Source: a virus
Lineage: Duplodnaviria > Heunggongvirae > Uroviricota > Caudoviricetes
Length of the DNA stretch: 49,769 bases
Virus record (IMG/VR): IMGVR_UViG_638341086_000008
Direction: 5' to 3' (one strand)
This document shows positions 20,589 through 48,485 of the stretch, one piece after another. Position numbers and translations under genes: made by a program. Within the stretch, counting starts at the first letter, position 1; every line of letters starts with the position of its first letter. The notes beneath the pieces were generated by a model. It was not told where the DNA came from and did not search any database. It saw nothing but the letters and a program-made list of their open reading frames with translations.

Positions 20589-20795
20589 ATGAATAAAGAA
20601 CAATCTGCTGATGAACTCTCGTTGGATCTGATTCGTGTAAAAAATATGCTTAATAGCACCATTTCTATGAGTTACCCGGATGTTGTAATTGCATGTATAG
20701 AACATCAGGTGTCTCTGGAAGCATTCAGGGCAATTGAGGCAGCGTTGGTGAAGCACGATAAGAATTCGAAGGATTATTCCCTGGTGGTTGACTGA
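20589..20795 (+). CDS. Small prophage protein (68 aa; ynfO-position ORF)
   Basis: [71 protein letters not shown]; assigned by position between ydfO and the terminase genes. Confidence 0.45.
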
Positions 20796-21109
20796 GCACC
20801 ATAACTGCTAATCATTCAAACTATTTCACCTGTGACAGAGTCAATATCGCATTCTGTCACTGTCAGGCTAATACAGAGCTGCAATTCAACTACTGCAATG
20901 TCCTCGTAATTAGGTGAATTTACAATATCGTCCTGTTCGGATGCCGGTTGCATTGCTGAAGATGAGGCATTTATGGTTCGCATATTTTCCCCTCATGCTC
21001 GTCAGTCCTGTGCGTAGGAAGAAACAGGACACTCACACTAATTTGTGTGGGCATGCTGTGATGTCCTTCTGAATTATTCCTATGCCATTATGTAAAGCGC
21101 TGTATCAGA

Positions 21110-34976: not shown

Positions 34977-35075
34977 ATGACAGAGACAGAATCAGCGATT
35001 CTGGCGCACGCCCGGCGATGTGCGCCAGCAGAGTCGTGCGGCTTCGTGGTGAGAACACCGGAGGGGGAAAGATAT
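34977..35075 (+). pseudogene. Tail assembly protein K, 5' fragment (33 codons) upstream of the IS66 insertion
   Basis: MTETESAILAHARRCAPAESCGFVVRTPEGERY, then the IS end GTAAGCG at 35076; reading frame resumes at 37537. Confidence 0.8.
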
Positions 35076-35112
35076 GTAAGCGTGCAGCAAGAACCGTATT
35101 GACGGGGATGTG

Positions 35113-36650
35113 TTATTCAGTCGGCAGTGCTACGCGCCAGGGGAGCAGTTCGCCGACCCGGTTTATCGGCCAGTCGGCTATGACGTCAAGGACATAGCGG
35201 AGGTAGCTTTCTGGCTCCACTCCGTTCAGTTTGCACGTCCCGATCAGGCTGTACAGCAGCGCTCCCCGCTCTCCTCCATGATCCGAACCGAAGAACAGGT
35301 AGTTTTTGCGGCCCAGACTGACCATCCGCAACGCATTTTCAGCGATGTTATTGTCCGCCTCAGCCCAGCCATCATCTGCATAGTACGTCAGCGCCGGCCA
35401 CTGGTTCAGGGCGTATGCGAACGCTTTCGCCAGTTCTGAGTGTCGCGACAGGGTTTTCATCTTTTCACGCAGCCAGCTTTCCAGGGATTTCAGCAGCGGT
35501 TTCGTTTTCAACTGACGTTCGGCAAGGCGCTGCTCCGCCGTCATTCCCCTTATCTCTGCCTCGATGGCGTACAGTTCGCCGATCCGTTTCAGCGCTTCCT
35601 CCGTCAGGGCTGACGGGGTGCGAACGTGCACATCGTGGATTTTACGGCGGGCGTGAGCCCAACAGGCGGCTTCCGTTATCCGGCCATCCCGGTACAGCTC
35701 GTTGAACCCGGCGTATGCATCCGCCTGCAGTACACCACTGAACCCCGCAAGATGGGTCTGCGGATGGATGCCTTTTCTGTCCGGGCTGTAAGCGAACCAC
35801 ACCGCCGGCGCCAGCGTTGACCCGGCGTTACGGTCGTCACGAACGTAGGTCCATAACCGCCCGGTCTTCGTTTTCTTATTGCCTGGCAACAGCACCGGGA
35901 CAGGCGTGTCATCAGCATGGAGCTTACCGTCAGTCAGCACATAGTCCTGAAGCGCTTCTTCCAGCGGTGACAGTAGCCGGCAGCATGCATCCACCCAGCC
36001 CGACAGCAGTGAACGACTCAGCTCCACGCCCTGGCGGCCGTACATTTCAGACTGGCGGTACAGCGGGGTGTGCTCTGCATACTTTGAGATCAGCACGCGG
36101 GCCAGCAGCCCCGGTCCTGCGATACCCCGCTCGATGGGCCGTGAAGGCGCGGGGGCTGCACGATGGCATCGCACTGAGTACAGGCATGCTTTTCACGTAC
36201 AGTCCGGATAACCCGGAAGGCGCTGCGCATCAGCTCCAGCTGTTCGGCGGCATCCTCACCCAGATAGCTCAGCGAGCCTCCACATTCCGGGCAGCATGAC
36301 GCTGCCGGCAGCAGCCGTTTTTCATCGCGGGGGAGTGATTCGGGGAACGGTTTGCGGGTGCGGGTTTGACGCAGCGGGCGCTGCACGGCCGGGTCGTCAA
36401 CCCGACCGGTAAGGGTATCACTTTCTTTCTGAAGTGCCTTCAGGTCAGCTTCCATCGGTGCGATACGACGGGAGACTTTTTCCGAGCGGCTGCCGAAGTT
36501 CATCCGGCGCAGCTTATCCAGCTGTGCCTGCAGATGGTCTATTTCGCGTTCACGCTCGTTCAGCTTTTCCTGCAGGGCACGGTTCAGCGCCTCCTGTTCG
36601 GCAAGGAGACGTTTCAGTGCATTGATATCGTCAGGAAGTGAGCTGCTCAT
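35113..36650 (-). pseudogene. tnpC: IS66-family transposase TnpC (copy 3), frameshifted near 36090..36174
   Basis: Two overlapping minus-strand ORFs (36090..36650 and 35113..36174) together span the TnpC alignment. Confidence 0.75.
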
Positions 36651-36698
36651 ACCGGGTATATTACCAGGCTCATTCAGCGTCGACCAGGATAAAGAGGC

Positions 36699-37046
36699 TT
36701 ACAACATAGTCAGGGACGTAAGCAGTCTTTTAGGCTGCCGCCAGTCGATACCTTCCAGCAGCATCGCCAGCTGTGCCGGTGTGAGGAACACTTTGCCATC
36801 CCGGGCTGACGGCCAGGCGAAGCGGCCGCGCTCCAGCCGTTTGGTCAGCAGACACAGTCCATCGCCGGTAGACCAGAGGAGCTTTACCTGACTGCCATTA
36901 CGCCCACGGAAGATAAAAACGTGACCTGACATCGGATCGTCTTTCAGCGTCGTCTGCACCTTTGCCGCCAGGCCGTTGAAGCCGTTTCTCATATCGGTGA
37001 TGCCAGCGACCAGCCAGATCTTTGTCCCTGATGGTAATGGGATCAA
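36699..37046 (-). CDS. tnpB: IS66-family TnpB (copy 3)
   Basis: 115 aa, MIPLPSGTKIWLVAGITDMRNGFNGL.... Confidence 0.85.
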   Translation of the reverse strand: MIPLPSGTKIWLVAGITDMRNGFNGLAAKVQTTLKDDPMSGHVFIFRGRNGSQVKLLWSTGDGLCLLTKRLERGRFAWPSARDGKVFLTPAQLAMLLEGIDWRQPKRLLTSLTML

Positions 37047-37447
37047 CGTTTGAGCTCCCGTATCAGCAGGTTCAGGATATTTTCGCTGATGGCACCATTC
37101 AGACGGAGTGATCCGTGCCGGAACGTCACTTCACAGCTGATATTGAGTGATTCAGGTGTCGCAGCAGCTACAGGTTGTGACCGGGGGGAGGTTGTAGGGA
37201 CAACATCTTCGGCATCAAGTGTTATCGGGAGCAGCTCAGGCACGTTGTTTTCTGTTGTTGAAGGAGGACGTAGTTTTCCTTCGCGCCAGTACTGGCGCCA
37301 CTTGAACAGCAAATTATCGTTGATCCCATGCTCACGAGCGAGTTGCGCTACGGAGATCTCTGGTCGATGCGAGAGTTCAACCATTTTGATTTTGAACTCA
37401 ACGGGATAATTAGGGCTTTTTTTACGCACTGCGGTTAATGATTTCAT
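37043..37447 (-). CDS. tnpA: IS66-family TnpA (copy 3)
   Basis: 134 aa, ..YPVEFKIKMVELSHRPEISVAQLAREHGINDNLLFKWR.. Confidence 0.8.
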   Translation of the reverse strand: MKSLTAVRKKSPNYPVEFKIKMVELSHRPEISVAQLAREHGINDNLLFKWRQYWREGKLRPPSTTENNVPELLPITLDAEDVVPTTSPRSQPVAAATPESLNISCEVTFRHGSLRLNGAISENILNLLIRELKR

Positions 37448-37536
37448 GGATAGCGTCCACCATATTTGGTGTCCACTATTCTCTCAGGAATTTCAGGATC
37501 TGCCAGACGGTGCTGAGACGACGCTTACAAAGATAT

Positions 37537-38181: not shown

Positions 38182-38720
38182 AAACGGGGGCCGAAGCCAT
38201 CCGGGCGCTGGCCATGCAGATCCCGGCGTTTCGTCAGAAGCTGAGCGACGGCTGGTATCAGGTACGCATTGCCGGGCGTGATACAGGTGAAACGGAATTA
38301 TCAGCCCGTCTTAATGAACCGCTGGCAAATGGTGCTGTGATCCATATCGTGCCGCGTCTGGCAGGAGCCAAAAGTGGCGGTGTGTTTCAGGCTGTGCTGG
38401 GGGCGGCTGTTATGGCGGTTGCTATATGGATGCCGGGGGTAGGAATTATGGCGAGTAATCTGCTGTTTTCTCTCGGTGCCAGTATGACGCTTGGCGGTGT
38501 TGCACAGATGCTGGCCCCTAAACCCAAAACCCCCCGCACACAGACAACGGATAACGGCAAACAGAACACCTATTTCTCCTCACTGGATAACATGGTTGCC
38601 CAGGGCAATGTTCTGCCCGTTCTGTACGGTGAAATGCGCGTGGGGTCACGCGTGGTTTCTCAGGAGATCAGCACGGCAGACGAAGGGGATGGTGGTCAGG
38701 TTGTGGTGATTGGTCGTTGA
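38079..38720 (+). CDS. Tail assembly protein I
   Basis: 213 aa, MAATHTLPLASPGMARICLYGDLQRFG..., ubiquitin-like N-terminus; overlaps the end of K as in lambda. Confidence 0.8.
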   Translation: MAATHTLPLASPGMARICLYGDLQRFGRRIDLRVKTGAEAIRALAMQIPAFRQKLSDGWYQVRIAGRDTGETELSARLNEPLANGAVIHIVPRLAGAKSGGVFQAVLGAAVMAVAIWMPGVGIMASNLLFSLGASMTLGGVAQMLAPKPKTPRTQTTDNGKQNTYFSSLDNMVAQGNVLPVLYGEMRVGSRVVSQEISTADEGDGGQVVVIGR

Positions 38721-38780
38721 TGAAAAACGTTTTATGTGAAACCGCCTGCGGGCGGTTTTGTCGTTTCTGGAGCGTGAGGA

Positions 38781-41700
38781 ATGGGTAAAGGCAGCAGTAA
38801 GGGGCATACCCCGCGCGAAGCGAAGGACAACCTGAAATCATCCCAGATGCTGAGCGTGATAGACGCCATCAGTGAAGGGCCGATTGAAGGTCCGGTGGAT
38901 GGATTAAAAAGCGTGCTGCTGAACAGTACGCCAGTGCTGGACAGTGAGGGGAATACCAACATCTCCGGCGTCACGGTGGTGTTCCGGGCCGGTGAGCAGG
39001 AGCAGACACCGCCGGAGGGATTTGAATCCTCCGGCTCCGAGACGGTGCTCGGTACGGAAGTGAAATACGACACGCCGATCACCCGGACCATCACGTCGGC
39101 AAACATTGACCGACTGCGTTTTACCTTCGGCGTGCAGGCACTGGTGGAAACCACCTCAAAGGGGGACAGGAATCCATCGGAAGTCCGCCTGCTGGTTCAG
39201 ATACAACGTAACGGTGGCTGGGTGACGGAAAAAGACATCACCATTAAGGGTAAAACCACTTCACAGTATCTGGCCTCGGTGGTGGTGGATAACCTGCCGC
39301 CGCGCCCGTTCAGTATCCGGATGCGCAGGATGACGCCGGACAGCACCACAGACCAGCTGCAGAACAAAACGCTCTGGTCGTCATACACCGAAATTATCGA
39401 TGTGAAACAGTGCTACCCGAACACGGCACTGGTCGGCGTGCAGGTGGACTCGGAGCAGTTCGGCAGCCAGCAGGTGAGCCGTAATTATCATCTGCGCGGG
39501 CGTATTCTGCAGGTGCCGTCGAATTATAACCCGCAGACGCGGCAATACAGCGGTATCTGGGACGGAACGTTTAAACCGGCATACAGCAACAACATGGCCT
39601 GGTGTCTGTGGGATATGCTGACCCATCCGCGCTACGGCATGGGGAAACGTCTTGGTGCGGCGGATGTGGATAAATGGGCGCTGTATGTCATCGGCCAGTA
39701 CTGCGACCAGTCAGTGCCGGACGGCTTTGGCGGCACGGAGCCGCGCATCACCTGTAATGCGTATCTGACCACACAGCGCAAGGCGTGGGATGTGCTCAGT
39801 GATTTCTGCTCGGCGATGCGCTGTATGCCGGTATGGAACGGGCAGACGCTGACGTTCGTGCAGGACCGGCCATCAGATAAGGTGTGGACCTATAACCGCA
39901 GTAATGTGGTGATGCCGGATGATGGCGCGCCGTTCCGCTACAGCTTCAGCGCCCTGAAGGACCGCCATAATGCCGTTGAGGTGAACTGGATTGACCCGGA
40001 CAACGGCTGGGAGACGGCGACAGAGCTTGTTGAAGATACGCAGGCCATTGCCCGTTACGGTCGTAACGTCACGAAGATGGATGCCTTTGGCTGTACCAGC
40101 CGGGGGCAGGCACACCGCGCCGGGCTGTGGCTGATTAAAACGGAACTGCTGGAAACGCAGACCGTGGACTTCAGCGTGGGTGCTGAAGGGCTTCGCCATG
40201 TACCGGGCGATGTCATTGAAATCTGCGATGATGACTATGCCGGTATCAGCATCGGCGGGCGCGTGCTGGCGGTGAACAGCCAGACCCGGACGCTGACGCT
40301 CGACCGTGAAATCACGCTGCTATCCTCCGGCACCACGCTGATAAGCCTGGTTGACGGGCAGGGGAGTCCGGTGAGCGTGGAGGTCCAGTCCGTCACTGAC
40401 GGCGTGAAGGTGAAAGTGAGCCGTGTTCCTGACGGCGTTGCCGAATACAGCGTGTGGGGACTGAAGCTGCCGACGCTGCGCCAGCGCCTGTTCCGCTGCG
40501 TGAGTATCCGTGAGAACGACGACGGCACGTATGCCATCACTGCCGTGCAGCATGTACCGGAGAAAGAGGCCATCGTGGATAACGGGGCGCACTTTGACGG
40601 CGACCAGAGCGGCACGGTGAATGGTGTCACGCCGCCAGCGGTGCAGCACCTGACTGCCGAAGTCACCGCAGACAGCGGGGAGTATCAGGTGCTGGCACGC
40701 TGGGATACGCCGAAGGTGGTGAAGGGCGTGAGCTTTATGCTTCGCCTGACCGTGGTAGCGGATGACGGCAGTGAGCGGCTGGTCAGCACGGCCCGGACGG
40801 CGGAAACCACATACCGCTTCACGCAGCTGGCGCCAGGGAACTACAGGCTGACAGTCCGGGCGGTAAATGCCCGGGGGCAGCAGGGCGATCCGGCATCGGT
40901 ATCGTTCCGGATTGCCGCACCTGCAGTGCCGTCGCGGATTGAGCTGACGCCGGGCTATTTTCAGATAACCGCCACGCCGCATCTTGCCGTTTATGACCCG
41001 ACGGTACAGTTTGAGTTCTGGTTCTCGGAAAAGCGGATTACCGATATCAGGCAGGTTGAAACAACAGCCCGCTATCTTGGTACGGCGCTGTACTGGATAG
41101 CCGCCAGTATCAATATCAAACCGGGCCATGATTATTACTTTTATATCCGCAGTGTGAACACCGTTGGCAAATCGGCATTCGTGGAGGCCGTCGGTCGGGC
41201 GAGCGATGATGCGGAAGGTTACCTGGATTTTTTCAAAGGCAAGATAACCGAATCCCATCTCGGCAAGGAGCTGCTGGAAAAAGTTGATCTGACGGAGGAT
41301 AACGCCAGCAGACTGGATGAGTTTTCGAAAGAGTGGAAGGACGCTAACGATAAATGGAATGCCATGTGGGGCGTCAAAATTGAGCAGACCAAAGACGGCA
41401 AACATTATGTCGCGGGTATTGGCCTCAGCATGGAGGACACGGAGGAAGGCAAGCTGAGCCAGTTTCTGGTTGCCGCTAACCGTATCGCGTTTATTGACCC
41501 GGCAAACGGGAATGAAACGCCGATGTTTGTGGCGCAGGGCAACCAGATATTCATGAACGACGTGTTCCTGAAGCGCCTGACAGCCCCGACCATTACCAGT
41601 GGTGGAAATCCACCGGCATTTTCCCTGACATCAGACGGAAAGCTGACCGCTAAAAATGCGGATATCAGTGGCAGTGTGAATGCGAACGCCGGGACGCTCA

Positions 41701-42194
41701 ACAATGTCACGGTAAATGAAAACTGTACGATTAAGGGCATGCTGGAGGCGACTCAGGTCAGAGGTGACTTCGTTAAAGCTGTATCCAAATCATTCCCGAA
41801 ACAGGCTGGTACGTGGGGTAATACGGAAACACCAAACGGGACGGTTACAGTCACCATCAGCGATGATCATAACTTTGACCGTCAAATCATTATTCCGCCC
41901 ATTATCTTTAACGGAATAGCGTATAGCGATCCGGGAAGTGGTAATAACCCGGGAGGTACAAGATACACGGGTTATGGTTTTGAAGTTCGCAAAAACGGTG
42001 TATTAATCGCATCCAGAGAAACTAAAGGGGCCATTCCCGGTAGTTACAGTGCAGTTATTGATATGCCGAGTGGTGGTGGTAGCGTCACTCTGGAGTTTAA
42101 GATTTTCCAGAAAGGCAATCAGGGGGCAGGCAATATCACCGACTGTACGGTGATTGTGACCAAAAAAGCCGCTTCCGGCATCAGTATTCGTTGA
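38781..42194 (+). CDS. Tail tip / host-specificity protein J
   Basis: 1137 aa, [20 protein letters not shown]...; fibronectin-III-like central repeats; a distinct C-terminal ~150 aa that I take to be the receptor-binding region. Confidence 0.9.
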
Positions 42195-42222
42195 AATTGT
42201 TATAACCCATATAAGGGCACCA

Positions 42223-42250
42223 GAAATGGTGCCTTTTTTATTGCAGAAAA
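42223..42250 (+). terminator. Rho-independent terminator after J
   Basis: AAGGGCACC-agaaa-TGGTGCCTT hairpin followed by TTTTTTATT. Confidence 0.7.
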
Positions 42251-42263
42251 GCGAGAGGTAATT

Positions 42264-42863
42264 ATGCGTAAACTTTATGCCGCCATTTTTTCCGCAGCCA
42301 TTTGTCTGGCCGTATCCGGTGCGCCTGCATGGGCATCTGAACATCAGTCCACGCTGAGCGCGGGGTATCTTCATGCCTCGACGAACGTTCCCGGCAGTGA
42401 TGATCTGAACGGGATTAACGTGAAATACCGTTATGAGTTTACGGACACACTGGGGATGGTGACGTCGTTCAGCTATGCAGGAGACAAGAATCGCCAGCTG
42501 ACCCGTTACAGCGATACCCGCTGGTATGAAGATTCCGTGCGTAACCGCTGGTTCAGCGTGATGGCGGGGCCGTCTGTACGCGTGAATGAATGGTTCAGCG
42601 CGTATGCGATGGCAGGCGTGGCTTACAGCCGTGTGTCGACTTTCTCCGGGGATTATCTCCGCGTAACTGACAACAAGGGGAAAACGCACGATGTGCTGAC
42701 CGGAAGTGATGACGGTCGCCACAGCAACACGTCTCTGGCGTGGGGAGCTGGCGTGCAGTTTAACCCGACCGAATCCGTGGCCATTGATATTGCTTATGAA
42801 GGCTCCGGCAGTGGCGACTGGCGCACTGACGGTTTCATCGTGGGTGTCGGTTATAAGTTCTGA
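42264..42863 (+). CDS. lom: Lom/Ail-family outer membrane beta-barrel protein (prophage moron)
   Basis: 199 aa with signal peptide and C-terminal ..YEGSGSGDWRTDGFIVGVGYKF, ending in Phe as beta-barrel outer membrane proteins do; own ribosome-binding site and terminator. Confidence 0.85.
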   Translation: MRKLYAAIFSAAICLAVSGAPAWASEHQSTLSAGYLHASTNVPGSDDLNGINVKYRYEFTDTLGMVTSFSYAGDKNRQLTRYSDTRWYEDSVRNRWFSVMAGPSVRVNEWFSAYAMAGVAYSRVSTFSGDYLRVTDNKGKTHDVLTGSDDGRHSNTSLAWGAGVQFNPTESVAIDIAYEGSGSGDWRTDGFIVGVGYKF

Positions 42864-42888
42864 TTAGCCAGGTAACACAGTGTTATGA

Positions 42889-42917
42889 CAGCCCGCCTGT
42901 TCAGGCGGGCTTTTTTG
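42889..42917 (+). terminator. Rho-independent terminator after lom
   Basis: GCCCGCCTG-ttca-GGCGGGC hairpin followed by TTTTTTG. Confidence 0.7.
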
Positions 42918-42927
42918 TGGGGTGAAT

Positions 42928-45888
42928 ATGGCAGTAAAGATTTCAGGTGTACTGAAAGACGGCACAGGAAAACCGGTACAGAACTGCACAATCCAGCTGA
43001 AAGCAAAACGTAACAGCACCGCGGTGGTGGTGAACACGCTGGCCTCAGAAAATCCGGATGAAGCCGGGCGTTACAGCATGGACGTTGAGTACGGTCAGTA
43101 CAGCGTTATTCTGTTGGTGGAAGGATTCCCGCCGTCACATGCCGGGACCATCACCGTGTATGAAGATTCCCGACCCGGTACGCTGAATGATTTTCTCGGT
43201 GCCATGACGGAGGATGATGCCCGTCCGGAGGCTCTGCGCCGTTTTGAACTGATGGTGGAAGAGGTGGCGCGTAACGCGTCCGCGGTGGCACAGAACACGG
43301 CAGCCGCGAAGAAGTCAGCCGGCGATGCCGGCACATCTGCCCGTGAGGCGGCAACCCATGCGACTGATGCTGCAGGCTCAGCACGCGCAGCCAGCACGTC
43401 AGCCGGACAGGCCGCGTCGTCGGCTCAGTCAGCGTCTTCCAGCGCAGAAACGGCATCAACAAAGGCCACTGAAGCGGAAAAAAGTGCTGCCGCTGCAGAG
43501 TCCTCAAAAAGCGCGGCGGCCACCAGTGCCGCTGCGGCGAAAACGTCAGAAACGAATGCGGCAGCGTCACAACAATCAGCAGCCACTTCTGCATCCACCG
43601 CGACCACGAAAGCGTCAGAAGCAGCCACTTCAGCACGGGATGCGGCGGCTTCAAAAGAGGCGGCAAAATCATCAGAAACGAACGCATCATCAAGCGCCAG
43701 TAGTGCCGCTTCCTCGGCAACGGCGGCAGGAAATTCCGCGAAGGCGGCAAAAACGTCCGAGACGAACGCCAGGTCTTCTGAGACGGCAGCGGGACAGAGC
43801 GCCTCAGCTGCGGCAGGCTCAAAAACAGCGGCTGCATCATCTGCCAGCGCCGCGTCAACAAGTGCCGGGCAGGCCTCAGCCAGTGCCACCGCTGCCGGAA
43901 AATCGGCAGAAAGTGCCGCATCGTCTGCTTTAACAGCCACAACGAAGGCTGGCGAAGCCACTGAACAGGCCAGCGCAGCAGCGAGTTCTGCTTCCGCAGC
44001 GAAGACATCCGAAACGAACGCGAAAGCGTCGGAAACCCGTGCAGAATCCTCAAAAACGGCTGCCGCATCGTCCGCCAGTTCGGCGGCGTCATCGGCATCA
44101 TCTGCATCTGCTTCAAAAGATGAGGCGACCAGACAGGCGTCAGCAGCAAAGGGCAGCGCCACGACGGCATCCACGAAGGCGACAGAGGCAGCTGGCAGTG
44201 CGGCAGCGGCAGCACAGAGCAAAAGTACGGCGGAATCCGCGGCAACGCGCGCCGAGACAGCAGCAAAACGGGCAGAGGATATTGCATCCGCCGTGGCGCT
44301 TGAGGATGCGAGCACGACGAAAAAGGGGATAGTACAGCTCAGCAGTGCGACCAACAGCACTTCCGAGTCACTGGCGGCAACGCCAAAAGCCGTTAAGGCC
44401 GCGTATGAGCTGGCTAACGGGAAATACACCGCACAGGATGCAACGACAGCACAGAAAGGGATAGTTCAGCTTAGCAACGCGACCAACAGCACATCTGAAA
44501 TGCTGGCGGCAACGCCAAAGTCGGTAAAGGCAGCCTATGACCTTGCTAACGGGAAATATACTGCTCAGGACGCTACGACAGCACAAAAAGGAATTGTCCA
44601 GCTCAGTAGTGCAACCAACAGCACATCTGAAACGCTTGCCGCGACACCGAAAGCAGTGAAAGCAGCTAATGACAATGCGAATGGTCGGGTACCTTCTGCC
44701 CGTAAGGTGAATGGTAAGGCGCTTTCAGCGGATATAACACTGACGCCGAAAGATATTGGTACGCTTAACTCAACAACAATGTCATTCAGCGGTGGTGCTG
44801 GTTGGTTCAAATTAGCAACGGTAACCATGCCACAGGCGAGTTCTGTTGTTTCAATTACGTTGATTGGTGGCGCTGGATTTAACGTGGGGTCACCTCAACA
44901 GGCAGGTATATCTGAACTTGTTTTACGTGCAGGTAATGGTAATCCGAAGGGGATTACTGGTGCTTTATGGCAGCGCACATTGACAGGGTTTACAAATTTT
45001 GCCTGGGTTAATACATCTGGTGATACTTACGATATTTACGTTGCAATCGGAAATTATGCGACTGGTGTAAATATTCAATGGGATTATACCAGTAATGCCA
45101 GCGTGACGATTCATACGTCACCAGCATATTCTGCTAATAAGCCGGAAGGGTTAACGGACGGTACAGTTTATTCACTCTATACGCCATCAGAGCAGTTTTA
45201 TCCGCCTGGCGCACCAATCCCGTGGCCATCAGATACCGTTCCGTCTGGCTATGCCCTGATGCAGGGGCAGGCTTTTGACAAATCTGCATACCCGAAACTT
45301 GCAGCGGCTTATCCGTCAGGCGTGATCCCTGATATGCGTGGCTGGACGATTAAGGGCAAACCTGCCAGTGGTCGGGCCGTATTGTCTCAGGAACAGGACG
45401 GCATTAAATCGCATACCCACAGCGCCAGCGCATCCAGTACGGATTTGGGGATGAAAACCACATCGTCGTTTGATTACGGCACTAAATCCACGAATAACAC
45501 TGGTGCGCATACCCATAGTTTAAGTGGCAGCACGAATGCAGCTGGTAATCACAGCCATAGAGATGGCCGTCGATTTAACCCCAGTGTTTTTAAAGATACT
45601 TATCAATATGGTTATACAAGCTCAGGTCAAAATACCTGGGGTGTACAAGGCTCAGTAGGTATGTCTACGGGGTGGTTAGCGAATACCAGTACAGATGGTA
45701 ATCATAGCCATTCACTGTCCGGCACAGCAGCATCTGCAGGTGCACACGCGCATACTGTCGGTATTGGTGCTCATACGCACTCCGTTGCGATTGGTTCACA
45801 TGGACACACCATCACCGTTAACGCTGCTGGTAACGCGGAAAACACCGTCAAAAACATCGCATTTAACTATATTGTGAGGCTTGCATAA
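42928..45888 (+). CDS. stf: Side tail fibre protein (Stf)
   Basis: Starts [17 protein letters not shown]; long Ala/Ser/Thr-rich low-complexity centre; three tandem ~39-aa fibre repeats; His-rich HxH C-terminal tip. Confidence 0.85.
44323..44675 (+). repeat. Three tandem ~117-bp repeats inside stf, each encoding ~39 aa (..[40 protein letters not shown])
   Basis: Direct inspection of nucleotide and translated sequence; the third copy is degenerate at its end. Confidence 0.75.
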
Positions 45889-46463
45889 TGGCATTCAGAA
45901 TGAGTGAACAACCACGGACCATAAAAATTTATAATCTGCTGGCCGGAACTAATGAATTTATTGGTGAAGGTGACGCATATATTCCGCCTCATACAGGTCT
46001 GCCAGCAAACAGTACCGATATTGCACCACCAGATATTCCTGCTGGCTTTGTGGCTGTTTTCAACAGTGATAAGGCATCGTGGCATCTCGTTGAAGACCAT
46101 CGGGGTAAAACGGTTTATGACGTAGCGTCAGGGGACGCGTTATTTATTTCTGAACTCGGTCCGTTACCGGAAAATGTTACCTGGTTATCGCCGGAAGGGG
46201 AGTTTCAGAAGTGGAACGGCACAGCCTGGGTGAAAGATGCAGAAGCAGAAAAACTGTTCCGGATCCGAGAGGCGGAAGAAACAAAAAACAGCCTGATGCA
46301 GGTAGCCAGTGAGCATATTGCGCCACTTCAGGATGCTGTAGATCTGGAAATCGCAACGGAGGAAGAAACCTCATTGCTGGAAGCCTGGAAAAAGTATCGG
46401 GTGTTGCTGAACCGTGTTGATACGTCAACTGCACAGGATATTGAATGGCCAGCACTGCCGTAG
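45888..46463 (+). CDS. tfa: Tail fibre assembly protein (Tfa)
   Basis: 191 aa; start overlaps the stf stop (TAATG); conserved C-terminal ..[26 protein letters not shown]. Confidence 0.85.
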
Positions 46464-46559: not shown

Positions 46560-47150
46560 TTATATGTCAGGTGTCTGAAGTTTTGCTTTGGCTCTTAAAA
46601 TGGTTTGCCGCGAGGTTTTGAATTCCCGGGCAATGGCACTTATACTTACACCTGACTTAATTCGTTCGAATACCACCTGTTTCTGTTCTTCATTTAACAC
46701 AGGTGGTCGACCAAAACGTTTCCCTGCGCCGCGGGCTCTTACTATCCCGGAATGAGTGCGTTCAAGTAAAAGGTCTCGTTCAAATTCAGCGACTGCTGAA
46801 ATTACGTGCATCATCATTTTTCCTGTTGGACTGGTCAGGTCAATGCCCCCCAATGCTAAGCAATGCACTCTGATACCTGTTTCGGTCAGTTGTTCCACTG
46901 TTTTCCTGATATCCATTGCATTACAACCAAGGCGATCCAGTTTTGTCACAATCAATTGATCACCACATTTCAGGCGAGCAAGCAACCGGTTAAAACCAGG
47001 ACGCTCACTGGTTGCTGCTGAGCCGCTAATGTGTTCTTCGATTATTTGCTGAGGTTTGATTTTAAAACCTGCACTTTCGATTTCCCGGCGTTGATTTTCG
47101 ATGGTCTGATCCAGCGTTGATATCCGACAGTAAGCAAAAATTCGAGACAT
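46560..47150 (-). CDS. pin: Serine-recombinase DNA invertase (Pin/Gin/Hin family)
   Basis: 196 aa, [15 protein letters not shown]... with the catalytic Ser in the N-terminal resolvase domain and a C-terminal HTH; convergent with tfa. Confidence 0.9.
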
Positions 47151-47277
47151 AGTGAGACTCTATACGAAATTGGTGTTCATATCATAATGCATCTCAGAAA
47201 ATAATTTTGATTATTTTTGTGCATATTTGTATGTACACGTTCGAAAATAAACGAATGCGTATGCAACCCCGTAATTT

Positions 47278-47291
47278 TGGTGAGACCCAAA
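47278..47291. other. Perfect 14-bp palindrome CAAAATCGATTTTG upstream of pin (candidate recombinase or regulator site)
   Basis: Seen directly; only a loose resemblance to gix/hix-type half sites; followed by a second inverted repeat AACTCGG..CGAGTT at about 47303..47330. Confidence 0.25.
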
Positions 47292-47466
47292 ATCGATTTT
47301 GTGAAAAATGGCTTTAACTCGGTTTGTTTTTCGAGTTCCGGGCGGACTCAAGGAAGAAGAATAGTGTTGCGTGTTATTTTAACCAGATTTCAAGTTGTTT
47401 GGTCGTGGAAAAGTGGAGCAAAATGTTGTTAAAGTGGAAAAATGATAAAAAAGTAAGTTTATTATA

Positions 47467-47700
47467 TTACATTTTACCATTTAAATTTTGGTTGTCTTTA
47501 AGAACTGATATCGCTGTTTGTAATAATTCTTTGTTATCCAGCCATGATTTTTTCTTTATGTTTCCTTCAATGTAATCAAGCAATGTTCTGGTATTGATAG
47601 GTCTTCCCTGTTTTGCTACTTCCACTACAGCATCCCCTAGGATAATTCTTACTTCAGGAAGCTGCGCAGGGAACCACTTTAGGGTGTCTTTTGATTTCAT
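47467..47700 (-). CDS. ydfK: YdfK/YnaE-family small cold-shock-associated prophage protein
   Basis: Start set at the internal Met (MKSKDTLKWFPAQLPEVR..., 77 aa) with AAGGAA ribosome-binding site; the ORF track gives an 88-aa version from 47733. Confidence 0.65.
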   Translation of the reverse strand: MKSKDTLKWFPAQLPEVRIILGDAVVEVAKQGRPINTRTLLDYIEGNIKKKSWLDNKELLQTAISVLKDNQNLNGKM

Positions 47701-48485
47701 GAAGATATTCCTTAAAATATTATTGATTTTCATTGCGATATTGTATGTCTGATTCAGGATATGTTGACTTATACATCGGTTTTGTCTGGGTTATTGGATA
47801 TGCCAATCCCTAATTTTATTAGGGCATGGCTAAAAATGCTGAATATGATAAGGAGAGAAGTGATTATCAGTATGCTGTTCATATAGCCTCGAATTAGTAA
47901 TGTGTTATATATGATATAGTTGACAATTTTTATCTTGGGTGTTCTTAAAGTTCGTAGATAAACATTGTCGTTTCAGGTATACAGGAATGCTAACAGGTGG
48001 CAGCAAAAATCAGGCGGTTTATGGCGCAAGCTGAAGCGGCAACTGCAAACTATCTTATGCAGAGACTCTACACGGATTGGGTTTAAAAGTATACATAGAT
48101 AACAGTTTTTATCTGAAAAAGAAAAATATCAAGGTGATATAGCCTATATGCCTTTGATGCGGAGGAATGAATGTGATGGGAGTGATGTATCTGAATAGTT
48201 GAAAAACCGCAGACACGCCTTATGCAAGAACGTGCTGCGGTTGGCTGGTAAATTTTTCGATAGTGTGAGTATTGAATGATTTCCAGCCGTTCTTGATTTT
48301 ACGCATAAATCCATGAAAAAACTACTTATCTGTTGGGGAGTTTTTTTGGGGCATATATGGGACAGAAATAGGCCCCAGATAGACACTGAGATCGAACTTA
48401 GGATGCTTTTTAAAAAATGCAACTATCTGAAAAAACCTAGAAAACGCCAAGGAAACCACAGGATGGGAAAAAACACCTGTGAATT

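Follow-up and report, generated by a model that had tools for sequence, protein, structure and literature searches.

Is the host-contacting end of this tail operon a lambda inheritance throughout, or have some of its parts come from elsewhere? The question is raised by the J, lom, stf and tfa genes (positions 38781–46463) of IMGVR_UViG_638341086_000008, a 49,769-nt stretch of Caudoviricetes DNA hereafter referred to as the window. Comparison with lambda by blastn gave separate blocks at 38463–41750 (94.5% identity), 42736–43835 (88%), 44151–44398 (80%), 45201–45486 (86%) and 45739–46453 (93%), with nothing between them. The region is very probably the host-recognition end of a lambda-like prophage tail operon in which the cell-contacting parts have been exchanged for other alleles. 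Relative to lambda, J residues 986–1137, Stf residues 591–757 and Stf tip residues 878–921 appear to have been replaced by segments that would keep the same folds, while the Stf shaft appears to have gained length through 15 additional heptads and through expansion of one 44-residue unit to three. An earlier reading made from the letters alone (the sequence-only reading) had named J, Stf and a fibre tip and had proposed horizontally exchanged host-range modules. Its gene assignments stand. Exchange is borne out by sharp boundaries of lambda similarity that coincide with shifts in GC content at synonymous sites, and by the closest relatives of the non-lambda pieces, which lie in Stx1a/Stx2c and other lambdoid phages for the J C-terminus, in T-even and FelixO1-type phages for the middle of Stf and in the T-even phage P896 for the Stf tip. 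The features of the module, with the evidence for each, are as follows.

38781–42194, plus strand: J, tip attachment protein or central tail fibre, 1137 residues (Pfam, lambda J identity, PDB 8iyk, RefSeq)
41736–42191, plus strand: receptor-binding domain (RBD) allele of J, residues 986–1137 (lambda alignment, Ig_GpJ_C, GC content at third codon positions, GC3)
42264–42863, plus strand: lom, Ail/Lom outer-membrane beta-barrel (Pfam Ail_Lom)
42928–45888, plus strand: stf, intact side tail fibre of Ur-lambda type, 986 residues from ATG, without frameshift (Pfam, RefSeq coding sequence)
42928–43257, plus strand: Stf N-terminal tail-attachment domain and linker, residues 1–110 (match to PDB 9e7m)
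43258–44292, plus strand: Stf proximal coiled-coil shaft of 49 heptads, residues 111–455 (lag autocorrelation)
44303–44698, plus strand: three tandem 132-nt (44-residue) Phage_fiber_2 repeats of Stf, residues ~459–590 (repeat search, Tandem Repeats Finder, Pfam)
44698–45198, plus strand: Stf distal-shaft domain without lambda counterpart, residues 591–757 (blastn, GC3)
45199–45885, plus strand: Stf collar and T4 gp37-type needle, residues 758–986 (match to PDB 2XGF, Pfam Collar)
45559–45690, plus strand: Stf tip insert, residues 878–921 (44 residues), predicted to contact the receptor (position relative to T4 gp37)
45888–46463, plus strand: tfa, tail fibre assembly chaperone (lambda Tfa identity, Caudo_TAP)

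J is lambda-like up to its receptor-binding domain

The Pfam domains of J follow one another in the lambda order (Phage-tail_3, FNIII-A_GpJ, Ig_J, Ig_J_second, Phage_Tail_Tip and Ig_GpJ_C), with scores above the cut-offs for PF13550, PF24801, PF24421, PF24489, PF09327 and PF12421. The structure of lambda J (gpJ, UniProt P03749) in PDB entry 8iyk matched it at E=0, and entry 8xcj was also matched. J falls into the length class of its lambda counterpart and occupies the same place, after I and before lom. By domain order and operon position it is a lambda-type tip attachment protein.

Overall, J is 88% identical to lambda J, and the differences are concentrated at one end. In a global alignment, identity was 98.2% over residues 1–400, 95.5% over 401–800 and 96.9% over 801–960 (thus 96–98% over residues 1–960), fell to 80% over 961–985 and was 35.4% over 986–1137; nucleotide similarity to lambda in J ends at 41750 (blastn). 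The expectation that J would be lambda-like for most of its length with a distinct end of about 150 residues was therefore correct, and at high identity J cannot be aligned with lambda J over its full length. The divergent end is still a full-length domain, since Pfam Ig_GpJ_C spans residues 1001–1136 (E=2e-25). Five indels relative to lambda were found in these last ~152 residues, at ~1012, 1043–1048, 1078, 1100 and 1111–1116 (+2, +6, +1, +2 and −6, respectively). Maddamsetti et al. described a "specificity region" of J (residues 960–1132) that recombines independently of the remaining J, with lineage-defining indel hotspots at ~1012, 1048, 1077 and 1107 (PMC6646904); the window RBD has indels at all four.

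The boundary is also compositional. GC3 drops from 0.70 over codons 1–990 to 0.44 over codons 991–1137 (Fisher p=5e-10), with a change point after codon 937 (nt 41592; z=6.8, 0/500 permutations). The shift belongs to the window allele, because lambda's own C-terminal RBD stays at 0.63. In lambda, four bottom loops (L1–L4) of the J RBD insert into LamB (PMC11101478). By analogy, the window J would act as a trimer, bind a protein of the outer membrane and trigger opening of the tail.

Distribution of the J allele and its receptor

A tblastn search with the J C-terminus separated phages sharply: 74 phage records were at least 90% identical, and the other 169 matches were all below 60%. With about 30% of the phage records that match this query, the window allele was the commonest measured. 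Its carriers include many Stx1a- and Stx2c-converting phages, 2851, Stx2a_WGPS6, ev099, 2B8, Evi, Tritos, PhiR34_1 and PhiR42_1 (the last two with an RBD 95.8% identical), and it is present in 2090 of the 5426 complete E. coli genomes (39%). The PhiR phages may originate from Brenes & Laub 2025, a study cited in PMC13190303. In the searchable literature on PhiR/ECOR, infant-gut (ev099, 2B8) and long-tailed Stx phages, no receptor assigned to this allele was found.

Natural gpJ alleles A8 and 1A2, grafted onto lambda J at residue 964, use OmpC (Brödel et al., PMC11338833), and phi330 is an OmpC-dependent Stx phage with an A8-type J (PMC12502783). These proteins resemble the window J in that each carries, on a lambda-like J, another naturally occurring C-terminus that can be exchanged at about lambda residue 964. 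The window RBD is not of the LamB type as judged by high identity to lambda J 986–1132 and by loop lengths. It is likewise distinct from the A8 type (Eligo A8 gpJ, PDB 9wca; phi330), with which it shares only ~46% identity, and sequence comparison showed its C-terminus to be clearly different from that of 1A2. Use of OmpC is therefore not transferable to the window J by homology. Reference 47 of the phi330 paper is the T-even phage PP01.

It is possible, if on the doubtful side, that this allele has an outer-membrane receptor other than LamB and OmpC. If so, the host range of many long-tailed Shiga-toxin phages would be explained, and engineered lambda delivery particles would gain an extra gpJ module. 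Common in Stx1a- and Stx2c-converting phages, the allele would be a cheap and useful target for receptor identification; A8 and 1A2 are already part of lambda-chimera platforms.

Stf has an ordered shaft lengthened in whole units

Pfam domains found in Stf were phage_tail_N, three copies of Phage_fiber_2, Collar and Phage_fiber, and it resembles lambda orf-401 and orf-314 only in patches. At the N-terminus, PF08400 covers residues 1–134 (E=3e-71), Ur-lambda Stf residues 1–94 in PDB 9e7m gave a match at E=7e-51, and residues 1–110 are lambda-like. In Ur-lambda the N-terminal part of Stf forms a collar around the tail and so attaches the fibre (PMC12617516).

The centre of Stf had been described by the sequence-only reading as an Ala/Ser/Thr-rich, low-complexity stretch of about 330 residues. 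Such a stretch is present and comprises 345 residues (111–455; 38% A, 23% S and 12% T), but "low complexity" is not an apt label, for it is strictly periodic. It consists of 49 uninterrupted heptads in a single register with consensus xxAxxSA, with Ala at position 3 of 47/49 heptads, Ser at position 6 of 37/49 and Ala at position 7 of 35/49. The autocorrelation of residues has its only peaks at lags 7, 14, 21 and 28 (z=11.2, 7.2, 9.1 and 9.4), and the DNA repeats inside the shaft are spaced at multiples of 21 nt. The lambda shaft has the same register and 34 heptads between the same landmarks, so that the window version is longer by exactly 105 residues, or 15 heptads. If alpha-helical, these would add ~15 nm, computed at 1.5 Å per residue. 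Residues 102–393 of Ur-lambda Stf have been described as a proximal coiled coil (PMC12617516), and the periodicity argues that the Ala-rich centre of the window Stf is likewise an ordered heptad coiled-coil shaft, not disordered filler.

The heptads also account for the long open reading frames (ORFs) that overlap stf, the antisense ones of which had been called spurious, and rightly: GCN, TCN and ACN codons leave two of the three antisense frames with 0–1 stops over the 1035 nt of the heptad region. The ORFs comprise 378 residues (43151–44287, minus strand), 334 residues (43425–44429, minus strand) and 202 residues (43325–43933, plus strand, alternative frame). The annotated antisense "orf206b" of lambda, at the matching place, is the same kind of artefact.

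Distal to the heptads lie three tandem repeats at 44303–44434, 44435–44566 and 44567–44698, the second and third being 77% and 64% identical to the first. Three repeats had been noticed before and are confirmed, but not with the 39-residue period then proposed: the period is 132 nt, that is 44 residues (Tandem Repeats Finder: 2.7 copies, 78% matches). PF03406 (Phage_fiber_2) covers three stretches of Stf (E=1e-52), all three copies match lambda's single unit at 20710–20805, and the tail fibre S of phage Mu (5yvq/8ju3) matches one repeat unit.

Taken together with its distal part and chaperone, described below, the window fibre resembles Ur-lambda Stf (orf-401 plus orf-314) and Tfa in its 9e7m collar domain, in-register Ala-zipper shaft, Phage_fiber_2 unit and gp37-type collar and needle. 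It differs in its length of 986 residues with 15 extra heptads, in having three 44-residue units instead of one, and in carrying another distal-shaft domain (residues 591–757) and another tip insert. Stf length thus differs by whole units, 15 heptads and 44-residue duplications, which shows that fibre length is tuned in structural units; whole-unit variation of the shaft is a useful design rule for engineered fibres. The known receptor of lambda Stf is OmpC (PMC12617516). Because the tip and distal shaft of the window Stf differ from those of lambda, OmpC cannot be assumed as its receptor.

The distal part of Stf is related to T4 gp37

Residues 591–757 have no lambda match by blastn. Their best phage match is the JL22 side fibre (85%), followed at 35–60% by gp37 of the T2/K3/RB49 type and by FelixO1-type fibres, and the segment is present in 1286 of the 5426 complete E. 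coli genomes.

Beyond it, residues 744–986 match the crystal structure of the T4 gp37 tip (PDB 2XGF, E=6.7e-84), with Pfam Collar (PF07484) on residues 761–808. The repeated HxH motifs already noticed in this part of the protein number seven (at 829, 861, 875, 926, 940, 949 and 958), all aligned with those of T4, and 14 of the 17 His residues of Stf fall in its final 180 residues. In the T4 gp37 needle, His residues of three chains coordinate seven iron atoms (PMC6957217); by homology the Stf needle would coordinate Fe2+ octahedrally in the same way.

The end of the needle is where Stf departs from T4. A 28-residue tip subdomain of T4 gp37 (residues 932–959) contacts lipopolysaccharide and OmpC (PMC6957217), whereas the window Stf carries in its place an unrelated insert of 44 residues (878–921), which also differs from the lambda insert. 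From this position the insert is predicted to be the receptor-contacting subdomain. Six lambdoid phages (PhiR26_1, PhiR34_1, PhiR42_1, PhiR68_2, mEp460_ev081 and Kati) have an insert 100% identical to it, and gp37 of P896 (OL451225.1, 711–3899), a 170-kb T-even phage (Gaprivervirus), has one identical at 41/44 residues (93%). One adhesin tip thus serves both the long fibres of a myovirus and the side fibres of siphoviruses. At the DNA level P896 and the window are ~70% identical across the tip region. Recent transfer of the tip from a T-even phage is ruled out at this identity, and what the comparison supports for the shared allele is old shared ancestry only. T4 gp37 and P896 gp37 have in common with the window Stf the collar, the needle and the seven aligned HxH motifs. 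They belong to long tail fibres of myoviruses, whereas the window version belongs to a siphovirus side fibre, and the P896 chaperone is only 28% identical to the lambda-type Tfa of the window.

The final ~50 residues of Stf and tfa are lambda-like again (93% at the nucleotide level). Tfa is 95% identical to lambda Tfa in amino acids and matches Pfam Caudo_TAP (PF02413; E=3e-44), and the tfa start and the stf stop codon overlap (ATGA at 45888). The return to lambda-like sequence in both the Stf end and Tfa fits recognition of the fibre C-terminal end by its chaperone.

Base composition follows the lambda patchwork

GC content in stf falls from ~0.60–0.63 (43000–44400) to 0.44–0.50 (44600–45200). 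The high upstream value is due in part to Ala codons: across the heptads, GC content at second codon positions (GC2) is ~0.8 and GC3 only 0.42–0.58. By segment, GC3 is 0.58 in the N-terminal domain, 0.51 in the heptads, 0.52 in the repeats, 0.35 in the non-lambda middle (591–757), 0.54 in the lambda-like collar (758–853), 0.32 in the non-lambda needle and tip (854–937) and 0.45 in the lambda-like end. When segments were pooled, the lambda-like parts had a GC3 of 0.52 versus 0.34 for the non-lambda parts (Fisher p=4e-7). A single change point is best placed after codon 542 (nt 44554; z=4.6, 0/500 permutations). Stf therefore does have a compositional breakpoint. The drop from about 44700 reported by the sequence-only reading is real, and at GC3 too, yet its position is ~150 nt further upstream, and it is not a single step: composition alternates with the lambda/non-lambda patchwork.

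Lom

Lom is a complete beta-barrel of the Ail/Lom family (PF06316 Ail_Lom, E=1e-118 over residues 1–199 of 199) with a signal peptide-like N-terminus, MRKLYAAIFSAAICLAVSGAPAWA. At 46% identity to lambda Lom, it is an allele distinct from lambda's. The non-lambda block defined by blastn, 41750–42736, runs from the J C-terminus through most of lom. The GC3 of lom is high (0.62), unlike that of the J C-terminus in the same block, which suggests that the two have different histories.

Location of the module

The chromosome of E. coli O39:NM str. F8704-2 (NZ_CP050998.1) is identical to window positions 38781–46463 save for one intergenic mismatch over the 7.7 kb compared. Over 15 kb, six differences were found, at 36155, 36457, 42898, 46534, 47767 and 47829. 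RefSeq gives the gene order L, K (interrupted), I, J, lom, stf, tfa and labels the products of 38781–46463 as gpJ, Ail/Lom protein, "prophage tail fiber N-terminal domain-containing protein" and tfaQ. Since pinQ, ydfK, ynfT and a truncated ydfJ come after tfaQ in RefSeq, the lambdoid prophage holding J-lom-stf-tfa is located at the Qin site. The whole module is present at 80% or more in 2186 complete genomes.

Such a module is ordinary and already known: it is annotated in RefSeq, and thousands of genomes, as well as isolated phages, carry its alleles. Modular exchange has been published both for the J specificity region (PMC6646904) and for the relationship between lambda Stf and T4 gp37 (PMC12617516). 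As a discovery, the J/Stf mosaic matters little, being textbook phage biology.

Proposed mechanism

The mosaic would have arisen by recombination at conserved flanks within a pool of fibre genes shared by lambdoid and T-even phages. By homology with Ur-lambda (PMC12617516), T4 gp37 (PMC6957217) and lambda J-LamB (PMC11101478), the following course of infection is the most likely one. A trimer of Stf, held on the tail through its N-terminal domain as in Ur-lambda, would project on a long Ala-zipper coiled coil, two extra 44-residue units and a gp37-like distal shaft; Tfa would be needed for folding of its needle. The tip insert, carried on an iron-stapled HxH needle, would make the first contact with a surface receptor, fast and reversible. 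The trimeric, Ig-like C-terminal domain of J would then dock, loops first, into a protein of the outer membrane; the loops would spread, and this movement, passed up the central fibre, would open the tail.

Alternative explanations

Two further features of the window enter into how the module is to be read.

46560–47150, minus strand: pinQ-like serine invertase, context only (Pfam Resolvase and HTH_7, RefSeq pinQ)
35076–37528, minus strand: IS66-family element (ISEc22) within tail gene K (RefSeq, terminal ends, direct repeat)

The GC drop in stf might be a by-product of amino-acid composition, produced by Ala codons upstream, and have nothing to do with foreign origin. Much of the 0.60–0.63 plateau does come from GCN codons, as the GC2 and GC3 values of the heptads indicate, and for this plateau the explanation is partly true. 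The breakpoint itself is another matter: GC3 shifts as well, the change point at 44554 beats 500 of 500 permutations, and GC3 rises again exactly in the lambda-like collar, with boundaries that match the blastn breakpoints. A pure Ala-codon artefact was rejected for the breakpoint on these grounds and is highly unlikely. Still less can be said for stf-tfa as an invertible host-range cassette under Pin, of the kind found in Mu (G/Gin), P1 (C/Cin) and e14 (P/Pin). As in these systems, an invertase gene of the same family (Resolvase/HTH_7) stands beside stf-tfa, 97 nt beyond the end of tfa and on the other strand. The likeness ends there, for the window lacks the crossover sites and the alternative fibre-end genes (Sv'/U') of those systems. 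The gap between tfa and pinQ is only 96 nt and holds no second, inverted fibre-end gene set. The repeat search found no inverted repeat of at least 14 nt above 76% complementarity bracketing stf/tfa, and the hix/gix-type core AAACCNNGGTTT was not found near these genes; its two one-mismatch matches in the window, at 1592 and 19732, are at chance level. After these searches and the reading of the spacer the cassette was rejected, with next to no probability left to it. With no second gene set, no bracketing repeat and no crossover core, pinQ is an orphan invertase that has no part in a fibre switch here. The homologous region of phages Kati and Turner, ~11 kb long, contains a DNA invertase and nine hypothetical genes, and some relatives may retain a larger invertase cassette of this kind.

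The exchange of cell-contacting parts can be accepted and two of its consequences still be disputed. The J RBD might have changed in sequence and go on using LamB, leaving the host-range determinant as it was. The full-length Ig_GpJ_C fold is retained, no experiment on this J allele was found in the searchable literature, and K-12 MG1655, a strain with LamB, is recorded as the host of PhiR34_1, a carrier of the allele at 95.8%. Set against this are the 35% identity to lambda, the indels at the four specificity positions (~1012, 1048, 1077 and 1107) and the sister alleles at a similar distance that use OmpC (A8 and 1A2, PMC11338833; phi330, PMC12502783), which together make a receptor other than LamB, as the sequence-only reading had suggested, a reasonable supposition and continued use of LamB improbable. 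As to present activity, the module may be a decaying relic without function in a defective prophage, and to this we give about an even chance. IS66 tnpA, tnpB and transposase genes sit between two pseudogene fragments of K (C40 peptidase) in RefSeq. The ends of the element, GTAAGCG...CGCTTAC, are flanked by an intact 8-bp target duplication, AAAGATAT, at 35068–35075 and 37529–37536, so that ISEc22 interrupts the tail operon just upstream of I and J, and the prophage at the Qin site adjoins a truncated ydfJ. On the other side, the ORFs of J, lom, stf and tfa are full-length and can be aligned over their whole extent with functional homologues, plaque-forming phages carry nearly identical modules (PhiR26_1, 96.6% over 91%), and Lom can act from a prophage independently of tail assembly. 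Decay would in any case bear on current activity in F8704-2 and not on gene identity.

The reading of the region as a lambda-like operon end with exchanged cell-contacting parts is thus kept, and some observations weigh against it or against details of it. An AlphaFold2 model of Stf 591–757, built on a 38-sequence alignment, is a beta-sandwich of moderate confidence (mean predicted local distance difference test score 59, predicted template modelling score 0.62), and Foldseek against PDB returned weak matches (template modelling score ~0.47) to beta-sandwich accessory domains of tailspikes. The DNA identity of ~70% to P896 fixes neither the direction nor the date of the tip exchange. The argument for a J receptor other than LamB is one from divergence only. 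Finally, K is required for lambda tail assembly; since ISEc22 splits this gene, the prophage is probably unable to build tails, and the module would be inert in F8704-2.

Other observations

At 36155, loss of one nucleotide from a G/C run divides the IS66 transposase of the window into ORFs 35113–36174 and 36090–36650, where RefSeq has one coding sequence of 512 residues; another assembly version or a homopolymer error is the probable cause. Fourteen separate places on chromosome NZ_CP050998.1 match the J-tfa query, from which it follows that F8704-2 carries many lambdoid prophages or remnants; these could recombine with the J-tfa module. Between pinQ and the truncated ydfJ, at 47200–48200, lies a very AT-rich stretch (GC 0.32–0.36) in which RefSeq places ydfK (cold-shock) and ynfT; it is the junction region between prophage and chromosome at the Qin site.

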